Assembly: GCA_041748915.1 (NCBI GenBank)
Contig: JBGTCG010000076.1
Span: 205-64,204 of the forward strand
Length of the DNA: 64,000 nt
Source of the DNA: Methylococcales bacterium
GTDB taxonomy: Bacteria; Pseudomonadota; Gammaproteobacteria; Methylococcales; UBA1147
Direction: 5' to 3'
This document shows, in pieces, positions 10,528-49,463 of this stretch; the first letter of the stretch is position 1, and the number at the start of each line of letters is the position of its first letter. A program made the position numbers and the translations under genes. Below the pieces are notes generated by a model that was not told the origin of the DNA, did no database searches, and worked only from the letters and a program-made list of their open reading frames with translations.

Positions 10528-13365
10528 ATGAACCCTGCAGACCAACCTATTCAATCTAACCCACTGGCCGCGACCGGCGAGGTCCTGATCAACACGATCC
10601 TGGAATTGGGCCGGGAAATGAAAATCAGCCCTTCGTTACTCGAACACCTGGATCTGGATTCGCCACTGGACACCGTATTGGGGCTGGACAGTCTGACGCG
10701 GGTCGAATTTATCGCCCGGATCGAAAAGCGTTTCCGGGTGCAATTGGCCGAGTCGGCTTTTAAGAACGTGGCCACGCCCCGGGAACTGCTGCGCGAAATT
10801 TCAGGCGCCGGGTCGATGGCCGATCCACGTTCGGAACAGGCCATCACCACGCTGACTCTCGAAACCACCGATTCGACCCCGAAATACGCTCAAACGCTCA
10901 CGGACATCCTCAATTGGCATCTCAAGACTCATCCGGACCGTCCCCATATCCAGTTTTTTAGTGACCACGGCGTCGGTGAAATCATCAGCTACCGGCAATT
11001 GCATGAACGCTCGGAAGCAATCGCCGCCAATCTGCAGGCGGACGGATTCCAGCCCGGCCAGGCCGCGGCGATCATGCTGCCGACCTGCGCGGATTATTTT
11101 TATTCCTTTTTTGGCATCCTCGCCGCGGGCGGAGTTCCGGTGCCGATTTATCCGCCGGCGCGACTCAACCAGATCGAGGATCACCTGCTGCGGCACAAAA
11201 AGATTTTGAACAACTGCAGCGCCGCGGTTCTGATTACCGTTCCCGAGGCTTTGCCGGTTGCCCGGCTCTTGAAGAGCCATGTCCAGTCCCTGCGGTCGAT
11301 CGCAACCCCGTCCGGACCGCAACGCACCCGCGCAACGCTGCTGCGGCCGAAATTATCCACTGACGACATCGCCTTTCTGCAATATACGTCCGGAAGCACG
11401 GGCATTCCGAAGGGAGTCACTTTGAGTCACGCCAATCTATTGGCTAACATCCGCGCCATGGGGAGCAAACTGGAAGTCAATTCCTCGGATACCTTTGTAA
11501 GCTGGCTGCCGCTCTATCATGATATGGGCCTGATCGGTTCCTGGTTCGGAAGCCTTTATTATTCGGCATTGCTCGTAATCATGTCACCGCTGGACTTCCT
11601 GGCCAAACCGGAACGCTGGCTTTGGGCCATTCACCGCCACCGGGCCACGATCACGGCGGCGCCGAATTTCGCCTATGAGTTGTGTTTAAAACGGACCACA
11701 TCGGAGCAAATTGACGGGCTGAAGCTGGATTCGATGCGCGCGATGTTCAACGGAGCGGAGCCGGTCAGCCCGACAACCTTGCAGGGTTTTATCCAGCGGT
11801 TTGCCGCGGCGGGTCTGCGGCCTGGCGCGGTGATGCCGGTCTATGGTCTCGCGGAATGTTCGGTCGGGTTGACGTTTCCGCCACTCGGCCGCGGGCCCTT
11901 GATCGACCGGGTGTCGCGCGAAAAATTCATGAAAAAAGGAATCGCAGGCCCTGATCCGGAGAGCCCCGACGCCCTGCAATTTGTATCCTGTGGCTCGCCG
12001 ATCAAAAATCACGAAGTCCGGATCGTCGACGAGAACGGACGGGAAGTCCCCGATCGCTTCCAGGGCCTTCTGCAGTTTCGGGGACCGTCGACCACGTCCG
12101 GATATTACAATAATTCGGGAATAACGCGGGATCTATTCGATCAGGATTGGCTGAATTCAGGCGACCTCGCCTATATTGCCGACGGCGAGGTCTATCTGAC
12201 CGGACGCGCAAAAGATTTGATTATTCGCGCGGGACGCAACCTTTACCCTCAGGAACTCGAGGAACGCGTCAGTGAACTGCCCGGCATCCGCAAAGGTTGT
12301 GTGGCGGTATTCGGCAGCAAAGACCGTGAACGCGGCACCGAAAAACTGGTCGTACTGGCCGAAACCCGCGAGACGGACGCCGCCAAGAAACATGCGCTCG
12401 AAGTGGAAATCAACCGCGTCGTCTCCAATTTGACCGGAAGCGCGCCCGACGAGGTCGTCCTCGCCCCCCCGCAAACAGTCCTGAAGACCTCGAGCGGCAA
12501 ACTTCGACGCAGCGCCTGTAAGGAATTGTATGAGAATAACCGTCTCGGAAAAGGCGTCCGACCGATCTGGCTGCAGTTTTCTTCCCTGGCCTTATCCGGA
12601 GTTGTGCCGGAGCTCCGACGCATTCAAAATTCGATCGCATCCGGTCTCTGGGCTACCTACGCCTGGGTCGTATTCTCCATTCTGACTGCACTTACCTGGA
12701 CCAGCGTCGTACTGTGCCCGACCTTCGCGTGGCGAATCAAGATCATCCGTGCCGCCGTCCGGGTACTCTGCTGGTTGACCAACACCCGGATGGAAATCCG
12801 CGGCGCCGAACATTTGAACAGCATCGATCGACCCTGCGTGCTGGTCTGCAATCACTGCAGCTACCTCGATGCGGCGATGCTTTTCCTGGCTTTGCCACTC
12901 CGCTTCAGCTTTGTGGCCAAAGGCGAACTGAAGGAACAATTTCTGGCACGGGTTTTTTTAGACCGTATCCATACCGAGTTTGTAACCCGCTACGAAACCG
13001 AAAAAGGCCTCGCGGATTCGGAGAAAGTCACCAGGGCGGCGCGTGCCGGAAAAAATCTTCTCTTTTTTCCGGAAGGGACATTTACGCGCGTGCCTGGGCT
13101 CCGACCGTTCTTTATGGGAGCTTTCAAAACCGCGACCGAAACCGGCCACCCGTTGTTACCGGTGGTCATTCAGGGTACCCGGTCGATTCTGAGATCGGAT
13201 TCATGGTTCCCGCGGCATGGGTCGATCGAGGTGGATATTCTGCCGCCGGTCATCCCGAATACCCAAGGCTCCCCGGAAGATCCGTGGCAGACCGCAATGA
13301 CTCTGCGCGAAACCACGCGGCAGGCGATGTTGCGCAAGCTCAGGGAACCCGACTTGACCGCCTGA
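10528..13365 (+). CDS. Tri-domain fusion: carrier (ACP-like) domain + AMP-dependent acyl ligase/adenylase + membrane-linked PlsC-type lysophospholipid acyltransferase
   Basis: N-terminal LGLDSLTRVEFIARIEKRF (phosphopantetheine Ser motif). YTSGSTGIPKG and GDLAYI..GRAKDLI AMP-binding motifs. Hydrophobic linker, then NHCSYLD (HX4D) and FPEGT acyltransferase motifs. Confidence 0.85.
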   Translation: MNPADQPIQSNPLAATGEVLINTILELGREMKISPSLLEHLDLDSPLDTVLGLDSLTRVEFIARIEKRFRVQLAESAFKNVATPRELLREISGAGSMADPRSEQAITTLTLETTDSTPKYAQTLTDILNWHLKTHPDRPHIQFFSDHGVGEIISYRQLHERSEAIAANLQADGFQPGQAAAIMLPTCADYFYSFFGILAAGGVPVPIYPPARLNQIEDHLLRHKKILNNCSAAVLITVPEALPVARLLKSHVQSLRSIATPSGPQRTRATLLRPKLSTDDIAFLQYTSGSTGIPKGVTLSHANLLANIRAMGSKLEVNSSDTFVSWLPLYHDMGLIGSWFGSLYYSALLVIMSPLDFLAKPERWLWAIHRHRATITAAPNFAYELCLKRTTSEQIDGLKLDSMRAMFNGAEPVSPTTLQGFIQRFAAAGLRPGAVMPVYGLAECSVGLTFPPLGRGPLIDRVSREKFMKKGIAGPDPESPDALQFVSCGSPIKNHEVRIVDENGREVPDRFQGLLQFRGPSTTSGYYNNSGITRDLFDQDWLNSGDLAYIADGEVYLTGRAKDLIIRAGRNLYPQELEERVSELPGIRKGCVAVFGSKDRERGTEKLVVLAETRETDAAKKHALEVEINRVVSNLTGSAPDEVVLAPPQTVLKTSSGKLRRSACKELYENNRLGKGVRPIWLQFSSLALSGVVPELRRIQNSIASGLWATYAWVVFSILTALTWTSVVLCPTFAWRIKIIRAAVRVLCWLTNTRMEIRGAEHLNSIDRPCVLVCNHCSYLDAAMLFLALPLRFSFVAKGELKEQFLARVFLDRIHTEFVTRYETEKGLADSEKVTRAARAGKNLLFFPEGTFTRVPGLRPFFMGAFKTATETGHPLLPVVIQGTRSILRSDSWFPRHGSIEVDILPPVIPNTQGSPEDPWQTAMTLRETTRQAMLRKLREPDLTA

Positions 13366-13416
13366 AAATTGAAAACGCACGGGATCCTTCGGCAAACGGA
13401 ATTTCCAGGGAAACAT

Positions 13417-13540
13417 GAAAAATTCCATCCTGGATTTCTCCGTGGTCGGCGGCGCCCAATGCGATTTAGTGCTGCCCTTTTTAATATAATGCCGAAAGCT
13501 TGAATTTGGCAGCGTATCCCTGCGCCGCGGGAAGCTCTGC
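13417..13540 (+). repeat. Structured intergenic repeat, family 1, copy 1
   Basis: ..ttccatcctggatttctc..ggcggcgcc-caatgcgattt-agtgctgcc..tttggcagcgtatccctgcgccgcgggaagctctg.. aligns with 29140-29290, 36935-37077, 49055-49208 (reverse) and 56165-56280 (reverse). Confidence 0.85.
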
Positions 13541-13568
13541 CGAACCGGGAACCACATCGGTATCGCGC

Positions 13569-20094: not shown

Positions 20095-20565
20095 TTGAAC
20101 GCCGATAAATTGGTAAGAATCGAGCCGCCTGTTCGCGTTGCCGATAATCGCGGCTATCCGGGACTGCTCCGGCGGCTGGGAGCCATCCTATACGACGCCT
20201 TGGTATTGAGTGGCGTATGGTTTGCCGCCACCGCGTGCATCCTGCCCTTGAACGGAGGTGAAGCGATCGCGCCTGGACAATGGCAGTTTCCCGCCTATAT
20301 CGTGCTTGTCAGTTATGTGTTTTTCGGGTGGTTCTGGACTCATGGCGGCCAGACAATCGGCATGCGCGCGTGGAAAATTCGGGTTGTCAGCCATTCCGGA
20401 GGATCGATGACCTGGTTCCAGGCCCTGCTTCGCTTTTGCTGCGCTATCCTGTCCTGGAGCGCCGCCGGAATCGGATATTGGTGGATCGCATTCAGCAAGG
20501 ATAATAACGGATGGCATGACCTGTTGTCGCGCAGCCGGATTATCTGGATGGACTCATCCATTTAA
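20095..20565 (+). CDS. RDD-family membrane protein
   Basis: RRLGAILYDALVL.., GQTIGMRAWKIRV and WHDLLSRSR motifs typical of the RDD domain. TTG start as listed in the ORF track. Confidence 0.75.
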   Translation: MNADKLVRIEPPVRVADNRGYPGLLRRLGAILYDALVLSGVWFAATACILPLNGGEAIAPGQWQFPAYIVLVSYVFFGWFWTHGGQTIGMRAWKIRVVSHSGGSMTWFQALLRFCCAILSWSAAGIGYWWIAFSKDNNGWHDLLSRSRIIWMDSSI

Positions 20566-20873
20566 GGAAACACTGAATAAATCCATTCTTCGATTTCTGC
20601 GCTGTCCGCAACACTAAATCCGATTCGGTGTTGCGGCACCTCCAGTCGCTCGGCAGCGCAATCAACAAGCTTATCCGAGACAATCGTTGCTTCCTGATCA
20701 ACCATAGAAGTGTCCGTCTGCGGCTTCCGATTGAATTCAATTAACGTGTCGCGTAAAGAATTGCCACTGAAAACTAACTTGTAATACCGGCCGGATTCTC
20801 ATTCTGGACAGATATCCGCGAGCCGCGCTAGACTATGCTGATCCGGAAACACCCATCCATGGGATGTTTCCTC

Positions 20874-20908
20874 TACGGAATCGGAAAATATAGTTTTCCG
20901 ATTCCGTA
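20874..20908. repeat. Perfect 15-bp inverted repeat tacggaatcggaaaa-tatag-ttttccgattccgta
   Basis: Read directly from the sequence. Sits 2 nt upstream of leader element copy A. Confidence 0.9.
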
Positions 20909-20910
20909 CA

Positions 20911-20990
20911 TTTTCAATAGCGAAAGCCATTGAAAATGCCGGCTCGTCGTGAGCCGGACCAGTTTTCGTTCGTTTCCGAACGGAAACTGG
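20911..20990 (+). promoter_or_regulatory. Three-hairpin leader element, family 2, copy A (35 nt before the ATG at 21026)
   Basis: tttcaat-N10-attgaaa; ccggctc-gtcgt-gagccgg; ccagttttcgttcg-tttc-cgaacggaaactgg. About 80% identical by eye to 38061-38139. Confidence 0.6.
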
Positions 20991-27924: not shown

Positions 27925-28815
27925 ATGGCTATCATGATTGACGAAACAACGCGTGTGATCGTGCAAGGATTCACCGGCAAAATAGGAACGTTTCACGCGC
28001 AGGATATGATGAATTACGGAACCAATGTCGTCGGCGGAGTGACGCCCGGGAAAGGCGGAACCACGCATCTCGGCAAACCCGTCTTCAACACGGTCAAGGA
28101 TGCGGTAAAAGGCACCGGCGCCACCGCGAGTATTTTGTTTGTTCCGCCCCCGTTCGCGGCGGACGGTATCATGGAAGCGGCGGACGCGGGGTTAAAAGTC
28201 TGTGTCGCGATCACCGACGGCATTCCAACCCAGGACATGATGCGCGTCAAACGCTATATGCGCCGTTACAAAAAAGAAGATCGCATGCGTTTGACCGGGC
28301 CGAACTGCGCGGGCACGATCAGTCCGGGGCGGGCCATGCTCGGTATTATGCCCGGGCATATCTACATGCGCGGCAATGTCGGGATCGTCGGGCGCTCCGG
28401 GACGCTCGGTTATGAAGCAGCTTCGCAGATGAAAGCATTGGGGATCGGAATTACGACGTCGGTCGGGATCGGCGGCGATCCGATCAACGGCAGTTCGCAC
28501 CGGGACATACTGGAGTTGTTCGAGCAGGATCCTGAAACCAGGGCGGTGATGATGATCGGTGAAATCGGCGGACCCCAGGAGGTTGAAGCCGGATATTTCG
28601 CCCGTGATCATATGTCCAAGCCGGTCGTAGCCTATATTGCCGGACTGACCGCGCCGAAAGGACGACGGATGGGCCATGCCGGTGCGATCGTCTCCGGCAG
28701 CGGCGAAAGCGCCGCGGAAAAGGTTGCGATCCTAAACGAATGCGGGGTAACCATCGCTCCGACGCCTTCGGAACTCGGCAAAACGATGGCCCAGACACTT
28801 GCCAAACTCAGCTGA
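27925..28815 (+). CDS. mtkB: Malate--CoA ligase alpha subunit
   Basis: 296 aa. CoA-binding N-terminus VIVQGFTGKIGTFH and the phosphohistidine region MGHAGAIV. Confidence 0.85.
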   Translation: MAIMIDETTRVIVQGFTGKIGTFHAQDMMNYGTNVVGGVTPGKGGTTHLGKPVFNTVKDAVKGTGATASILFVPPPFAADGIMEAADAGLKVCVAITDGIPTQDMMRVKRYMRRYKKEDRMRLTGPNCAGTISPGRAMLGIMPGHIYMRGNVGIVGRSGTLGYEAASQMKALGIGITTSVGIGGDPINGSSHRDILELFEQDPETRAVMMIGEIGGPQEVEAGYFARDHMSKPVVAYIAGLTAPKGRRMGHAGAIVSGSGESAAEKVAILNECGVTIAPTPSELGKTMAQTLAKLS

Positions 28816-29139
28816 GCCGGAATTCTTTTGCGCGCCTTTTCGATGCGCCGTGACGAATTGCGAATGGATCGCCACCGCGGTCATGATTGAGCCGGTCTCG
28901 CGAATAATCCAAGGCGATATTCGGAGTTAAAATCCCGGATGTCGCCTTTATGCTTCTGCCATACCCGAGCCGGTGGAAGCTGGGCTCCAAACTTTTTCCG
29001 GGCAGTTGGGTGAAGCGGCAGTCGGAACCGGCTATCCCACCTGAAGTCCTGATCAAGACGCGGAGTCGTTGTGCTGCCTGGACTCAAAGAACGCGATATT
29101 CACCTGCCTACCGTGTTGATCGATAACTTAGGGAAACGC

Positions 29140-29290
29140 TGAATTAATCCATCCTGGATTTCTCAGCGGTCGTCAACCCTGCCAATGCGATTTGGGTTTG
29201 CCTCACAAAATCAGACGCTTACAGCGTCCTATTTTGGCAGTGCATCCCTGCACTGCGGGAAGCTCTGATTAAATCAGGGCTTCCTTAGGC
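29140..29290 (+). repeat. Structured intergenic repeat, family 1, copy 2
   Basis: tgaattaatccatcctggatttctcagcgg..ccaatgcgatttggg..cacaaaatca..attttggcagtgcatccctgcactgcgggaagctctgattaaatcagggcttcc. Hairpins gcagtgca-tccc-tgcactgc and ggaagctctgat-taa-atcagggcttcc. Confidence 0.9.
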
Positions 29291-35790: not shown

Positions 35791-36095
35791 CGATGAACCG
35801 GTCTTCCGGTCCGTCAACAGGGAACGACGGACGGCGAAGGGTATGGATTGGTCACGGCGGCGCGCGGCGCATTGCGACATTGGGTTCGACTGCGCGACGG
35901 TGTTATCGAACAATGTCAGGTCGTCACGCCGACGGCATACCGGCGAGCCAAACGGATTATTCGAAAGTGCGAATAATCCGCACCGGTTTCGTACGGCCGC
36001 GTGCGCTGGCCGGAAATTTTGCCGTTCCGGGACGAAATTGCTTAACCGCGTTTACTTCAAATATAATCCAGAGTTTATACAATGTAACTATATCG

Positions 36096-36896
36096 ATGGT
36101 GTTTTGGGTCCTGCAGCGAGTCGTCGCCTGTTACTCCCTGCTCTTATACTCAGCCGTATTTATCGGGATCGATTACGGTGCAGCCGTAAAGCTGATTTCC
36201 GGGCCTCTGCTATGGGTGTTGATCATCCTGCAGATCGCGCGGCATGCGGCTCTCGGCATGACCTTGGGTTTCCACCGCTTTTATTCGCATGCAGCGTATA
36301 AGACATCCCGCCTTTACGAGTTGTTTATTGCCTATTGCTGTGCGGCTTCAAACCAGGCCGCGATGACCTGGTGGGCCGGCACGCATCGATATCATCACGT
36401 CCATTGCGACGACGATCAGGATCCGCATTCGCCGGTAACCCATTCCTTTCTTTATGCCTGGCTCGGCTGGGGATACGATCCGAAACATGCGGACAAGGTA
36501 ATTCAGCTCCGTTACCCTGAAATCCGCTGGCTGGATCGGTGGTGTTTCCTGATACCCTGGACGGAGTGGATCCTTTTTTGGCTATTCTCCGGATCGCTCG
36601 CATTCGCAACCCTCGCGTCCATGATCCCGGCCGGGTTATCACCGGTCGGCACGCTGTTTTTCAATTGTATCTCGCATGGCGGCAAACCGGATGAAAAAGG
36701 CTGCACGGCGCGGCGATATTATCAGCTTTCGGCCATTCTGCTGGGCGAACACGATCACCGGGATCATCATGTCTATCCGAACAAAGCCAAGCGTCCGGGC
36801 CCTGATTTACCCTACTGGCTGATATTATGGCCTATGGCAAGACTCGGATTGATTTGGGATCTGAAAAATGATCATACCGATACGCGGCGCGGGTAA
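36096..36896 (+). CDS. Membrane fatty-acid (acyl-CoA/acyl-lipid) desaturase family protein
   Basis: Three His boxes: HRFYSH, HRYHHVHCD and HDHRDHH. Hydrophobic N-terminus. Start taken at the internal ATG 36096 of ORF 35793-36896. Confidence 0.8.
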   Translation: MVFWVLQRVVACYSLLLYSAVFIGIDYGAAVKLISGPLLWVLIILQIARHAALGMTLGFHRFYSHAAYKTSRLYELFIAYCCAASNQAAMTWWAGTHRYHHVHCDDDQDPHSPVTHSFLYAWLGWGYDPKHADKVIQLRYPEIRWLDRWCFLIPWTEWILFWLFSGSLAFATLASMIPAGLSPVGTLFFNCISHGGKPDEKGCTARRYYQLSAILLGEHDHRDHHVYPNKAKRPGPDLPYWLILWPMARLGLIWDLKNDHTDTRRG

Positions 36897-36934
36897 ATCC
36901 GGCGCTGACCACCCTGCCCTTGACCAGGCAAACC

Positions 36935-37077
36935 TGAATAAGTCCATCCTGGATTTCTCAACGGCCAGCAACCTCAACAACGATTTGGGAGTGCCTTACA
37001 AACTCATATGAAAGCGTAGATTTTGGCAGCGCATCCCTTACCTGCCGGAAGCTCTAATTTAATAAGAGCTTCCCTGG
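36935..37077 (+). repeat. Structured intergenic repeat, family 1, copy 3
   Basis: ctgaataagtccatcctggatttctcaacgg..acaacgatttggg..tacaaactca..attttggcagcgcatccc..ggaagctct-aatttaata-agagcttcc (perfect 9-bp terminal hairpin). Starts 39 nt after the desaturase stop. Confidence 0.9.
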
Positions 37078-48690: not shown

Positions 48691-49054
48691 TTGACCCCAC
48701 AGGCTCGCTTTCTGGAGCCATCAATCTTCCGGAAAAATTCCCGACCGCCGAAAACTTGGGCCGCTCGCCGGAATGCGGGCGGTTCCGCCCATTGCGATCA
48801 TGGATCCTGTTATTTATGGTTCCCCGCCGCGGCGAAAACGACGAACCATAGCGTGATTTCCGCTCGCTGTTTCCGGATTTTCTGTCCGGGCAGCAGGTGT
48901 TCAAAAAATATCGGCTGGAATTTTTTGAAACCTGTGAACCCCAGGACTGACAAGGTTCTGAAATTGCCGTCTTATTTGGTCGGATTCAGTTTTATTCTTT
49001 ACTTTTGTATCAAGGCGTTGCAGACTAACGTGGTCTAATAATCATAAAATTTGC

Positions 49055-49208
49055 CTGGGATCCGTAAGGACGCCCTGACTAGTTCAGAGCTTCCCGTAGC
49101 GCAGCGATGCGCTGTCAAAGTCGATCGATATAAGCGGTTGATTTTGTACGGCAGCACCAAATCGCATTGGGTGCTGCCGACTGAGAAATCCACGATGGAT
49201 TTATTCAA
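49055..49208 (-). repeat. Structured intergenic repeat, family 1, copy 4 (reverse orientation)
   Basis: The reverse complement reads tgaataaatccatcgtggatttctcagtcggcagcacc-caatgcgattt-ggtgctgcc..acaaaatca..tttgacagcgcatcgctgcgctacgggaagctctga.. with a perfect 9-bp first hairpin. Confidence 0.9.
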
Positions 49209-49463
49209 ATTAATGGATAGGGCGAATGCACGGCGAGATCAACAGTTTCAGACGGGCCGGTCTGTTTCGTGCCATTCCTGGATTGACTGCCAGATTCTGA
49301 CAACAGATTTGTCTGAAAAGAACTTAGAGTCGTAATCGGATTCCATGACCTCTAGTCCAAGATCTCACCGCAGTGTGCCGCCGTCGGACGGCCAGGGATA
49401 AATAACAACTGAAAATAATTCCGGTCTGCCTATCCCGGCAGATTGACAAGAGGCGAGACTACT

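Follow-up and report, generated by a model that had tools for sequence, protein, structure and literature searches.

A hairpin-rich intergenic repeat in a Methylococcales genome is probably a new MITE family of the IS5 group

A short intergenic repeat with several hairpins recurs along the 64,000-nt stretch of Methylococcales DNA analyzed here (the window), and it raises one main question: is it a structured RNA or a mobile element? A preliminary description listed five copies and left several options side by side: a REP/BIME- or MITE-like element, a 3'-UTR stabiliser or terminator module, or a small-RNA family. Our analysis sustained the MITE option, through terminal inverted repeats (TIRs), a YTAR target-site duplication (TSD), IS5-type ends, and absence at orthologous loci, and it spoke against the RNA-level and REP/BIME options. 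We consider it very probable that the repeat family is a non-autonomous MITE of the IS5 group, about 152 bp long and moved by a transposase encoded elsewhere. It is a new family of a kind that is already well known, not a new RNA gene.

The five listed copies were all present and homologous in a MAFFT alignment, and each of the two core motifs occurred four times in the window (0.06 and 0.00 expected in dinucleotide-preserving shuffles). The copy number rose from five to eight when we scanned the window, with filters off, using a covariance model built from 29 complete elements. The boundaries moved as well: in the model-defined copies, the true start lies about 8 nt further 5' and the end slightly earlier than first described. 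This 5' shift was revealed by relatives from other genomes. The transposon nature had been hidden because the earlier boundaries cut off the left TIR.

In its full form, the element reads GGAAGCNCTGAATAAATCC ... GATTNAATCAGNGCTTCC, and its ends are inverted copies of each other, with TIRs of 19-21 nt (GGAAGCGCTGAATAAATCC ... GATTNAATCAGNGCTTCC). Nearly the whole element consists of hairpins, five in total: H1 is the left terminal repeat plus its own inverted copy, H2, H3, and H4 are internal, and H5 is an inverted copy plus the right terminal repeat. The copies in the window and the end features of copy 2 are the following (scores from the covariance model):

13409..13541, forward strand: copy 1, 62.9 bits, decayed, right terminal hairpin truncated
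20566..20638, forward strand: copy 6 (new), partial, 22 bits, E = 6.6e-5, with the left TIR, a degenerate H1, and H2
20837..20990, forward strand: copy 7 (new), sister lineage, 59.8 bits
29128..29131, no strand: left copy of the TSD of copy 2, TTAG, read directly
29132..29284, forward strand: copy 2, 153 bp, the best preserved, complete with H1-H5, 138.4 bits, E = 1.4e-38, full length
29132..29149, forward strand: left TIR of copy 2, GGAAACGCTGAATTAATC, also the 5' arm of H1
29267..29284, reverse strand: right TIR of copy 2, reverse complement GGAAGCCCTGATTTAATC, also the 3' arm of H5
29285..29288, no strand: right copy of the TSD of copy 2, TTAG, read directly
36927..37073, forward strand: copy 3, 93.2 bits
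37999..38139, forward strand: copy 8 (new), decayed, sister lineage, 30.9 bits, E = 1.8e-7
49068..49212, reverse strand: copy 4, 109 bits
56150..56287, reverse strand: copy 5, 43 bits, the most decayed, H5 lost

Within the window, only copy 2 keeps both ends together with the TSD. Its inverted repeat (29129-29149 / 29267-29287) spans 21 nt with 81% complementarity, and its predicted RNA fold reaches -65.7 kcal/mol (z = -6.8). In most window copies the tips are eroded and the TSD is not recognisable; in copy 4, the left tip was replaced or eroded (CATTAATT, not GGAAGCGC). Copy 6 was first found by its TIR pattern. It is inserted at TTAA (20562-20565), and the TAA of this site is the stop codon of an RDD-family gene (Pfam RDD; ORF end 20565). 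Copies 7 and 8 represent a sister lineage with 79% mutual identity over H3-H5: both have the five-hairpin layout, and their stem sequences and termini differ from those of the main family. The predicted fold of copy 7 is the more stable (-84.2 kcal/mol, z = -11.2). Overall, the window copies are mostly decayed, old relics that were retained mainly in convergent gene gaps.

Some ORFs run through the repeats, at 13201-13557 (reverse strand) and 49051-49335 (forward strand) of the window and at 4076-4219 of contig L107, and one such ORF is a 47-aa gene call in a public assembly. The element has probably given rise to these ORFs as artefacts of annotation.

Relatives in other genomes gave the clearest view of the insertion mark. 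A metagenome scan with a 22-nt left-end pattern retrieved 108 loci. A first scan of genome contigs, with a pattern as short as 16 nt, gave mostly chance matches; the true carriers it revealed were OZ251218.1, L085, L030, L036, L053, L058, L064, L070/L095, and L104. Metagenome loci and genome-scan carriers together provided 71 distinct elements complete with their two ends and flanks, a few of them the same insertion from two samples, whose removal left the picture unchanged. The 4-nt flanks were identical in 30 of the 71 complete elements, against 4.6 ± 2.0 expected when right flanks were shuffled among copies (maximum of 12 in 10,000 shuffles). The effect appeared at k = 4 and at no other repeat length. 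On either side the flanks conform to Y-T-A-R, and their composition is flat beyond. Since flank pairs such as ATAA/ATAA, TTAT/TTAT, TTAG/TTAG, and CTAA/CTAA are not palindromic, the repeat is direct rather than an outward extension of the inverted repeat. Moreover, GGAAGCNCTGAWTNAATC is present at both ends in relatives.

The relatives fall into size classes of 152 bp (the main one), 73-87 bp, about 135 bp, and 165-205 bp. The 73-87 bp class contains the two terminal hairpins only (H1 + H5), and it presents TSDs too. Many relatives carry, nested in the H2 loop, a second G+C-rich palindromic repeat (GTGGGAGCGCAGCTTCGCTGCGCGATGATCGCCCGGC...GCCGGGCTCC) that is unrelated to the element (L085 2261-2391; L125, L132, L135, L140, L192, L195, and L202), and such nested inserts account for the 165-205 bp classes. 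In one Gammaproteobacteria MAG, elements form head-to-tail and head-to-head clusters in which a 4-bp ATAA/TTAT duplication is the sole separator. Clusters are found at L089 1486-1828 and at L022 5629-5883 (chromosome OZ251218.1), and they suggest repeated insertion beside existing copies.

Among known systems, the element stands nearest to IS5 of E. coli and to MITEs derived from IS5-family elements. A 4-bp YTAR duplication is the signature of IS5 (PMC5009759, PMC10359306), and the duplication of our element matches it. The ends are also alike. A real IS5 copy, from plasmid Rts1, has the ends GGAAGGTGCGAACAAG ... CTTATTCGCACCTTCC; when the IS5 ends (GGAAGGTGCGAAYAAG) are set against the element (GGAAGCGCTGAATAAA), both have GGAAG at positions 1-5 and GAATAA at positions 10-15, and the element end is identical in register to the right end of the real copy at 11 of 16 positions. 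There are differences too. The element lacks a transposase gene and measures 152 bp, compared with 1.2 kb for IS5; each of its ends is itself palindromic (a TIR plus its inverted copy), and it carries three further internal hairpins. Its hosts are uncultured Methylococcales-like bacteria and other environmental Proteobacteria, not enterics.

Transposase remnants bring the element and the IS5 group closer. A tblastn search with the IS5 transposase over the 1.45 Mb of collected DNA returned one match, a frameshifted N-terminal fragment in contig L146. It lies about 80 nt downstream of AGAAGCGCTGATTTATCC, and the contig also bears a short element. Searching with this fragment retrieved twelve proteins, all of 52-93 aa and with the IS5 N-terminal domain PF05598; where they are named, they are called 'IS5 family transposase' (JGI). 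These truncated IS5-type genes are 46-49% identical to the IS5 transposase over residues 4-73, and they begin 66-80 nt after AGAAGCGCTGATTTATCC, GGAAACACTGATTTATTC, or GGACACGCTGATTTATTC, each of which is identical at 16 of 18 positions to the right-end repeat of the element (GGAAGCGCTGATTTATTC). The remnant repeats are flanked by ATAA, TTAG, TAAG, or CTAG, and the remnant loci begin as follows:

L218/L219: CTAG followed by GGACACGCTGATTTATTC
L220/L222: TTAG followed by GGAAACACTGATTTATTC
L221: TAAG followed by GGAAACACTGATTTATTC

The same IS end thus occurs at two different sites (L220 vs L221), and twice a transposase remnant and a short element lie on one contig (L146 and L224). As the remnant ends match the element ends, the ends of the short element are those of an IS5-group insertion sequence. 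The preliminary description had counted a match to a known IS or MITE terminal sequence against its own proposal, and such a match to IS5-type remnants is what we found.

An intact parent IS with matching ends (inverted-repeat motif GGAAGCNCTGAWTWAWYC) was found neither in the 1.45 Mb of collected DNA nor among the closest protein relatives. The sequences downstream of about 140 left ends and the inverted TIR pairs spaced 0.7-3 kb apart contained remnants only, and all remnants with matching ends (16/18) were truncated or frameshifted. A bare-TIR scan of viral contigs gave one chance match in a coding region. L223 holds a different IS5-family element without these ends. Three other contigs resembled candidates and were rejected: L058 holds an IS256-type insertion, L110 an IS110-type insertion, and L135 ordinary genes.

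On these grounds, the family would move in trans. An IS5-group DDE transposase whose gene lies elsewhere would bind the 19-21 nt TIRs, excise or copy the element, and insert it at YTAR sites through a 4-bp staggered cut, and the 4-bp direct repeat would be the trace left by the repair of this cut. YTAR includes TAA or TAG, so gene ends would be natural targets, and insertions between convergent genes would persist because they leave promoters intact. The five hairpins are probably a property of the element lineage: in both end hairpins the terminal repeat pairs with its own inverted copy, and the three inner ones are probably kept through compensatory change in active master lineages.

Related genomes lack the element at orthologous loci. 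A contig from a Methylococcales MAG (L234) carries an ortholog at 83% identity and has the gene order found around copies 3 and 8: desaturase-like (forward), FkbM methyltransferase (reverse), and LPG synthase (forward). Its convergent gap measures 118 nt, compared with 205 nt in the window, and both coding flanks align. The covariance model detected no copy in the gaps of L234, nor in L235-L237 (E ≤ 1, filters off). This is a presence/absence difference for copies 3 and 8 across a diverged gap, not a base-precise empty site. Six loci orthologous to the surroundings of copy 2 also had no copy; there, the synteny downstream of the sucD/mtkB-like gene differs among relatives, so an empty site cannot be defined. 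Methylobacter, Methylomarinum, and Methylovulum have sucD/mtkB-like proteins with 81% identity to the one in the window, and for MAG proteins the identity rises to as much as 90%.

Some features of these neighbourhoods deserve a record. Copy 2 is separated from the stop of the sucD/mtkB-like gene by 316 nt (28816-29131) that have no called gene or model match, and the only ORF there (82 aa, 28808-29056, reverse strand) has no Pfam match. Upstream of copy 3, a 367-aa ORF (35793-36896) has fatty-acid-desaturase-like homologs (PF00487), all of 257-291 aa and covering about 70% of it; it is probably over-extended at its 5' end. The sucD-like gene (27925-28815 and neighbours; L228-L233) is called 'malate-CoA ligase subunit alpha' in many relatives (JGI), where it adjoins genes for an HpcH/HpaI-family lyase, an ATP-grasp beta subunit, and a PEP carboxylase. 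This neighbourhood is consistent with a serine-cycle gene cluster of a methanotroph-related host.

As for the position of the copies relative to genes, the distances of 52, 39, and 19 nt from a stop codon, given for three copies, are accurate (ORF ends at 13365, 36896, and 56299), and four of the five listed copies (1, 2, 3, and 5) do sit in convergent gaps according to our gap map. Copy 1 lies between a fatty acyl-AMP ligase-like gene and pgi, copy 3 between the desaturase-like and FkbM methyltransferase genes, and copy 5 between fba and a 296-aa ORF, all convergent. Copy 4 occupies a co-directional gap, antisense to the flanking ORFs, and copy 8 a divergent gap upstream of the LPG-synthase gene. 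In a greedy ORF map of the window, based on crude gene calls, the 45 intergenic gaps comprise 11 convergent, 9 divergent, and 25 co-directional ones, and the elements occupy five, one, and one of them, respectively. Occupancy is therefore 5/11 for convergent gaps vs 2/34 for the others (hypergeometric p about 0.006). Among 47 relatives whose flanks could be classified, again with crude ORF calls, 15 were in convergent, 9 in divergent, and 23 in co-directional gaps. A target preference together with the loss of insertions that hit promoters would produce the 'just after a stop codon' pattern, with no need for a 3'-UTR function.

The stem covariation seen in the preliminary description is real, and the stem examples quoted there are correct on direct reading of the alignment. 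We drew the structure by hand from the alignment, as RNAalifold mis-drew hairpins 4 and 5. Standard pairs fill 90.9% of the cells in the 29-sequence alignment, compared with 33-41% when partners are slid by 1-3 columns, and 27 of the 59 pairs show compensatory changes on both sides. Double-change cells number 161 vs 47 in column shuffles, with every helix contributing and none of 500 shuffles reaching the observed value; these counts are not phylogenetically independent, as they derive from roughly four or five subfamilies.

Could the element then be primarily a structured RNA, either a small-RNA family or a 3'-UTR stabiliser or terminator, with its hairpins under selection as RNA? The multi-hairpin folds are very stable in copies 2 and 7, the compensatory changes are genuine in all five helices, and several window copies lie just past stop codons in convergent gaps. 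Furthermore, MITE transcripts in other bacteria are known to yield sRNAs or terminators (review, PMC10969869). However, the earlier statement that G-T pairs are tolerated on the sense strand only was wrong: stems in the four best window copies contain 11 G·T vs 14 A·C mismatches, and those in 59 high-scoring distinct relatives 67 vs 102 (35 vs 32 when rare states only are counted), so there is no G·U excess. The antisense strand of copy 2 folds almost as well as the sense strand (-61.7 vs -65.7 kcal/mol). Orientation is unbiased in co-directional gaps, with 13 relatives in sense and 10 in antisense, and 9 copies lie in divergent gaps, where promoters are located.

The Rfam scan proposed earlier gave no family match: there were 0 hits over the whole window at the gathering threshold, and noise only around copy 2 at E ≤ 10. 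Terminator-like sites were no commoner than in shuffles, and the terminator idea was rejected at this chance level; a conserved hairpin plus U-tract, as an intrinsic terminator has, is absent. The T-run after the inner stem of H3 is part of the helix, and it swaps sides with an A-run between subfamilies (AU to UA), a change that preserves base pairing in the helix and would break up a U-tract. What comes after H5 is the YTAR flank rather than a run of T's. Besides, an RNA gene leaves the TIRs and TSDs unaccounted for. The hint of an RNA-level structure is thus unsupported, and we regard a primarily RNA nature as highly unlikely. The strand-symmetric structure fits a property of the DNA, or one that acts equally on either transcript.

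A plain MITE model still leaves two observations unaccounted for. The three internal hairpins are kept by covariation, and the short H1 + H5 forms, which lack them, seem to be mobile. Secondly, decay is uneven: among window copies 1-5, identity is 81% in the H1 core, 73% in H4, 68% in H2, 54% in H3, 46% in H5, and 45% in the left tip. The H1 core, a palindrome (TGAATAAATCCATCCTGGATTTCTCA), thus decays more slowly in dead copies than the tips where cutting occurs. This comparison uses the window copies; the metagenome sample was gathered by exact match to the H1 core, so its conservation in those alignments is by construction. Uneven decay could possibly reflect a constraint on master copies (transposase binding to the H1 core) combined with terminal erosion. 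Alternatively, the H1 palindrome or the hairpin block could have a role in situ, to which we give a small chance.

This second reading amounts to a MITE partly exapted by its host, in which proteins could bind the H1 core palindrome (AATCCA-TCC-TGGATT), or the strand-symmetric hairpin block could lie between convergent genes as a barrier in both directions or as a protector of RNA ends. It is compatible with the MITE reading, and we see it as an unlikely addition to it. Besides the uneven decay, it draws on the H2-H4 layout and the H1 core palindrome: compensatory change has maintained them in at least four or five diverged lineages, and they persist in the sister lineage with different termini. 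The elements also fill most of the five convergent gaps, where palindromic hairpins would serve transcripts arriving from either side. Yet uneven conservation can arise from master-copy constraint plus terminal erosion, the convergent-gap enrichment is weak in the wider sample (15/47), and relatives at 79-90% protein identity have no copies, so no conserved host role is evident at these loci. A functional module inside the MITE, structured and strand-symmetric (the H2-H4 block and the H1 core palindrome), is therefore a doubtful proposal; such a module could be a dispersed protein-binding site, a replication or transcription barrier, or a bidirectional protector of RNA 3' ends.

The remaining option was a REP/BIME-type element or a REPIN; its spread would be due to a RAYT/IS200-type tyrosine transposase that acts on hairpins in single-stranded form. 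Like these, our element consists of extragenic palindromes, often in convergent gaps, and is mosaic or clustered in some genomes (as in the L089 and L022 clusters). IS110-family elements also use it as a target, which is likewise true of E. coli REPs. REPs have neither TIRs nor TSDs and are mobilised by RAYT tyrosine transposases; by contrast, our element has IS5-type ends and a clear 4-bp TSD of variable sequence, which an IS200/IS605-type mechanism does not produce. It has no conserved GTAG-type head, and its 152-bp unit, which has TIRs, exceeds the 20-40 nt of a REP. The collected loci showed no RAYT, in a search that was not exhaustive. We thus consider membership in this class extremely improbable.

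Other insertion sequences have landed in the element. An IS110-family IS lies inside H5 (GGGAAACACT+IS+GAAGTATTCAGTGTTTCC) at L110 45-1445 (reverse strand), with a 333-aa transposase containing DEDD_Tnp_IS110 and Transposase_20 domains, and L153 888-1110 has a similar junction; H5 appears to be a preferred landing site for IS110-family IS. An IS3-type orfA (MSSKRHTDEFKIEAVRQV...) is inserted in H2 at L162 about 768-880 and downstream, and at L058 2280-3700 the right end of the element is cut short by a 400-aa transposase of the IS256/Mutator family.

As a non-autonomous IS5-group MITE, the family agrees with what is described for the class. Prokaryotic MITEs are small, typically under 500 bp, and without a transposase gene, and against the criteria of size, TIRs, TSD, coding capacity, and copy number (PMC10969869) our element presents a unit of 152-153 bp (size classes from 73 to 205 bp), a 21-nt TIR in copy 2 within the expected range of about 10-30 bp, its TSD, spurious ORFs only, and eight window copies alongside more than 100 from metagenome contigs and others from several MAG genomes. 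Classical structured bacterial MITEs combine TIRs and TSDs with stable predicted folds and nested insertions (review, PMC10969869), and our family resembles them in the TSDs of its young copies, its very stable folds, and its nested or clustered insertions. Correia/CREE of Neisseria, ERIC, RUP/BOX, and Coxiella QMITE1/2 are likewise small, multicopy, and intergenic, with TIRs. The TSD of Correia elements is TA. The TSD of our element is 4-bp YTAR, whereas that of QMITE2 has 7-9 bp (PMC10969869). Our element also differs in folding into five local covarying hairpins, not one long fold-back, and its sequence is unrelated to theirs, with no Rfam or literature match. A full-text literature search found no description of the core sequence, and blastn of copy 2 and the family consensus against 72,556 plasmids gave no match.

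The finding turns a puzzling structured repeat from a possible new RNA family into a MITE of the IS5 group, and this assignment keeps it from being wrongly annotated as an sRNA, as a terminator, or as short ORFs. The calibrated covariance model and the corrected boundaries can be used to mask the family in methanotroph-related and other environmental genomes. For specialists, the interest lies in internal hairpins that are maintained by covariation and absent from the shortest mobile forms, and in a terminal hairpin that serves as a target for IS110-family elements. If the inner module were functional, it is this module that selection would be holding in place between convergent genes, and it would also be a landing pad for the IS110 family. 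For the biology of the family, the element shows cleanly how a transposon that targets YTAR comes to lie beside stop codons.
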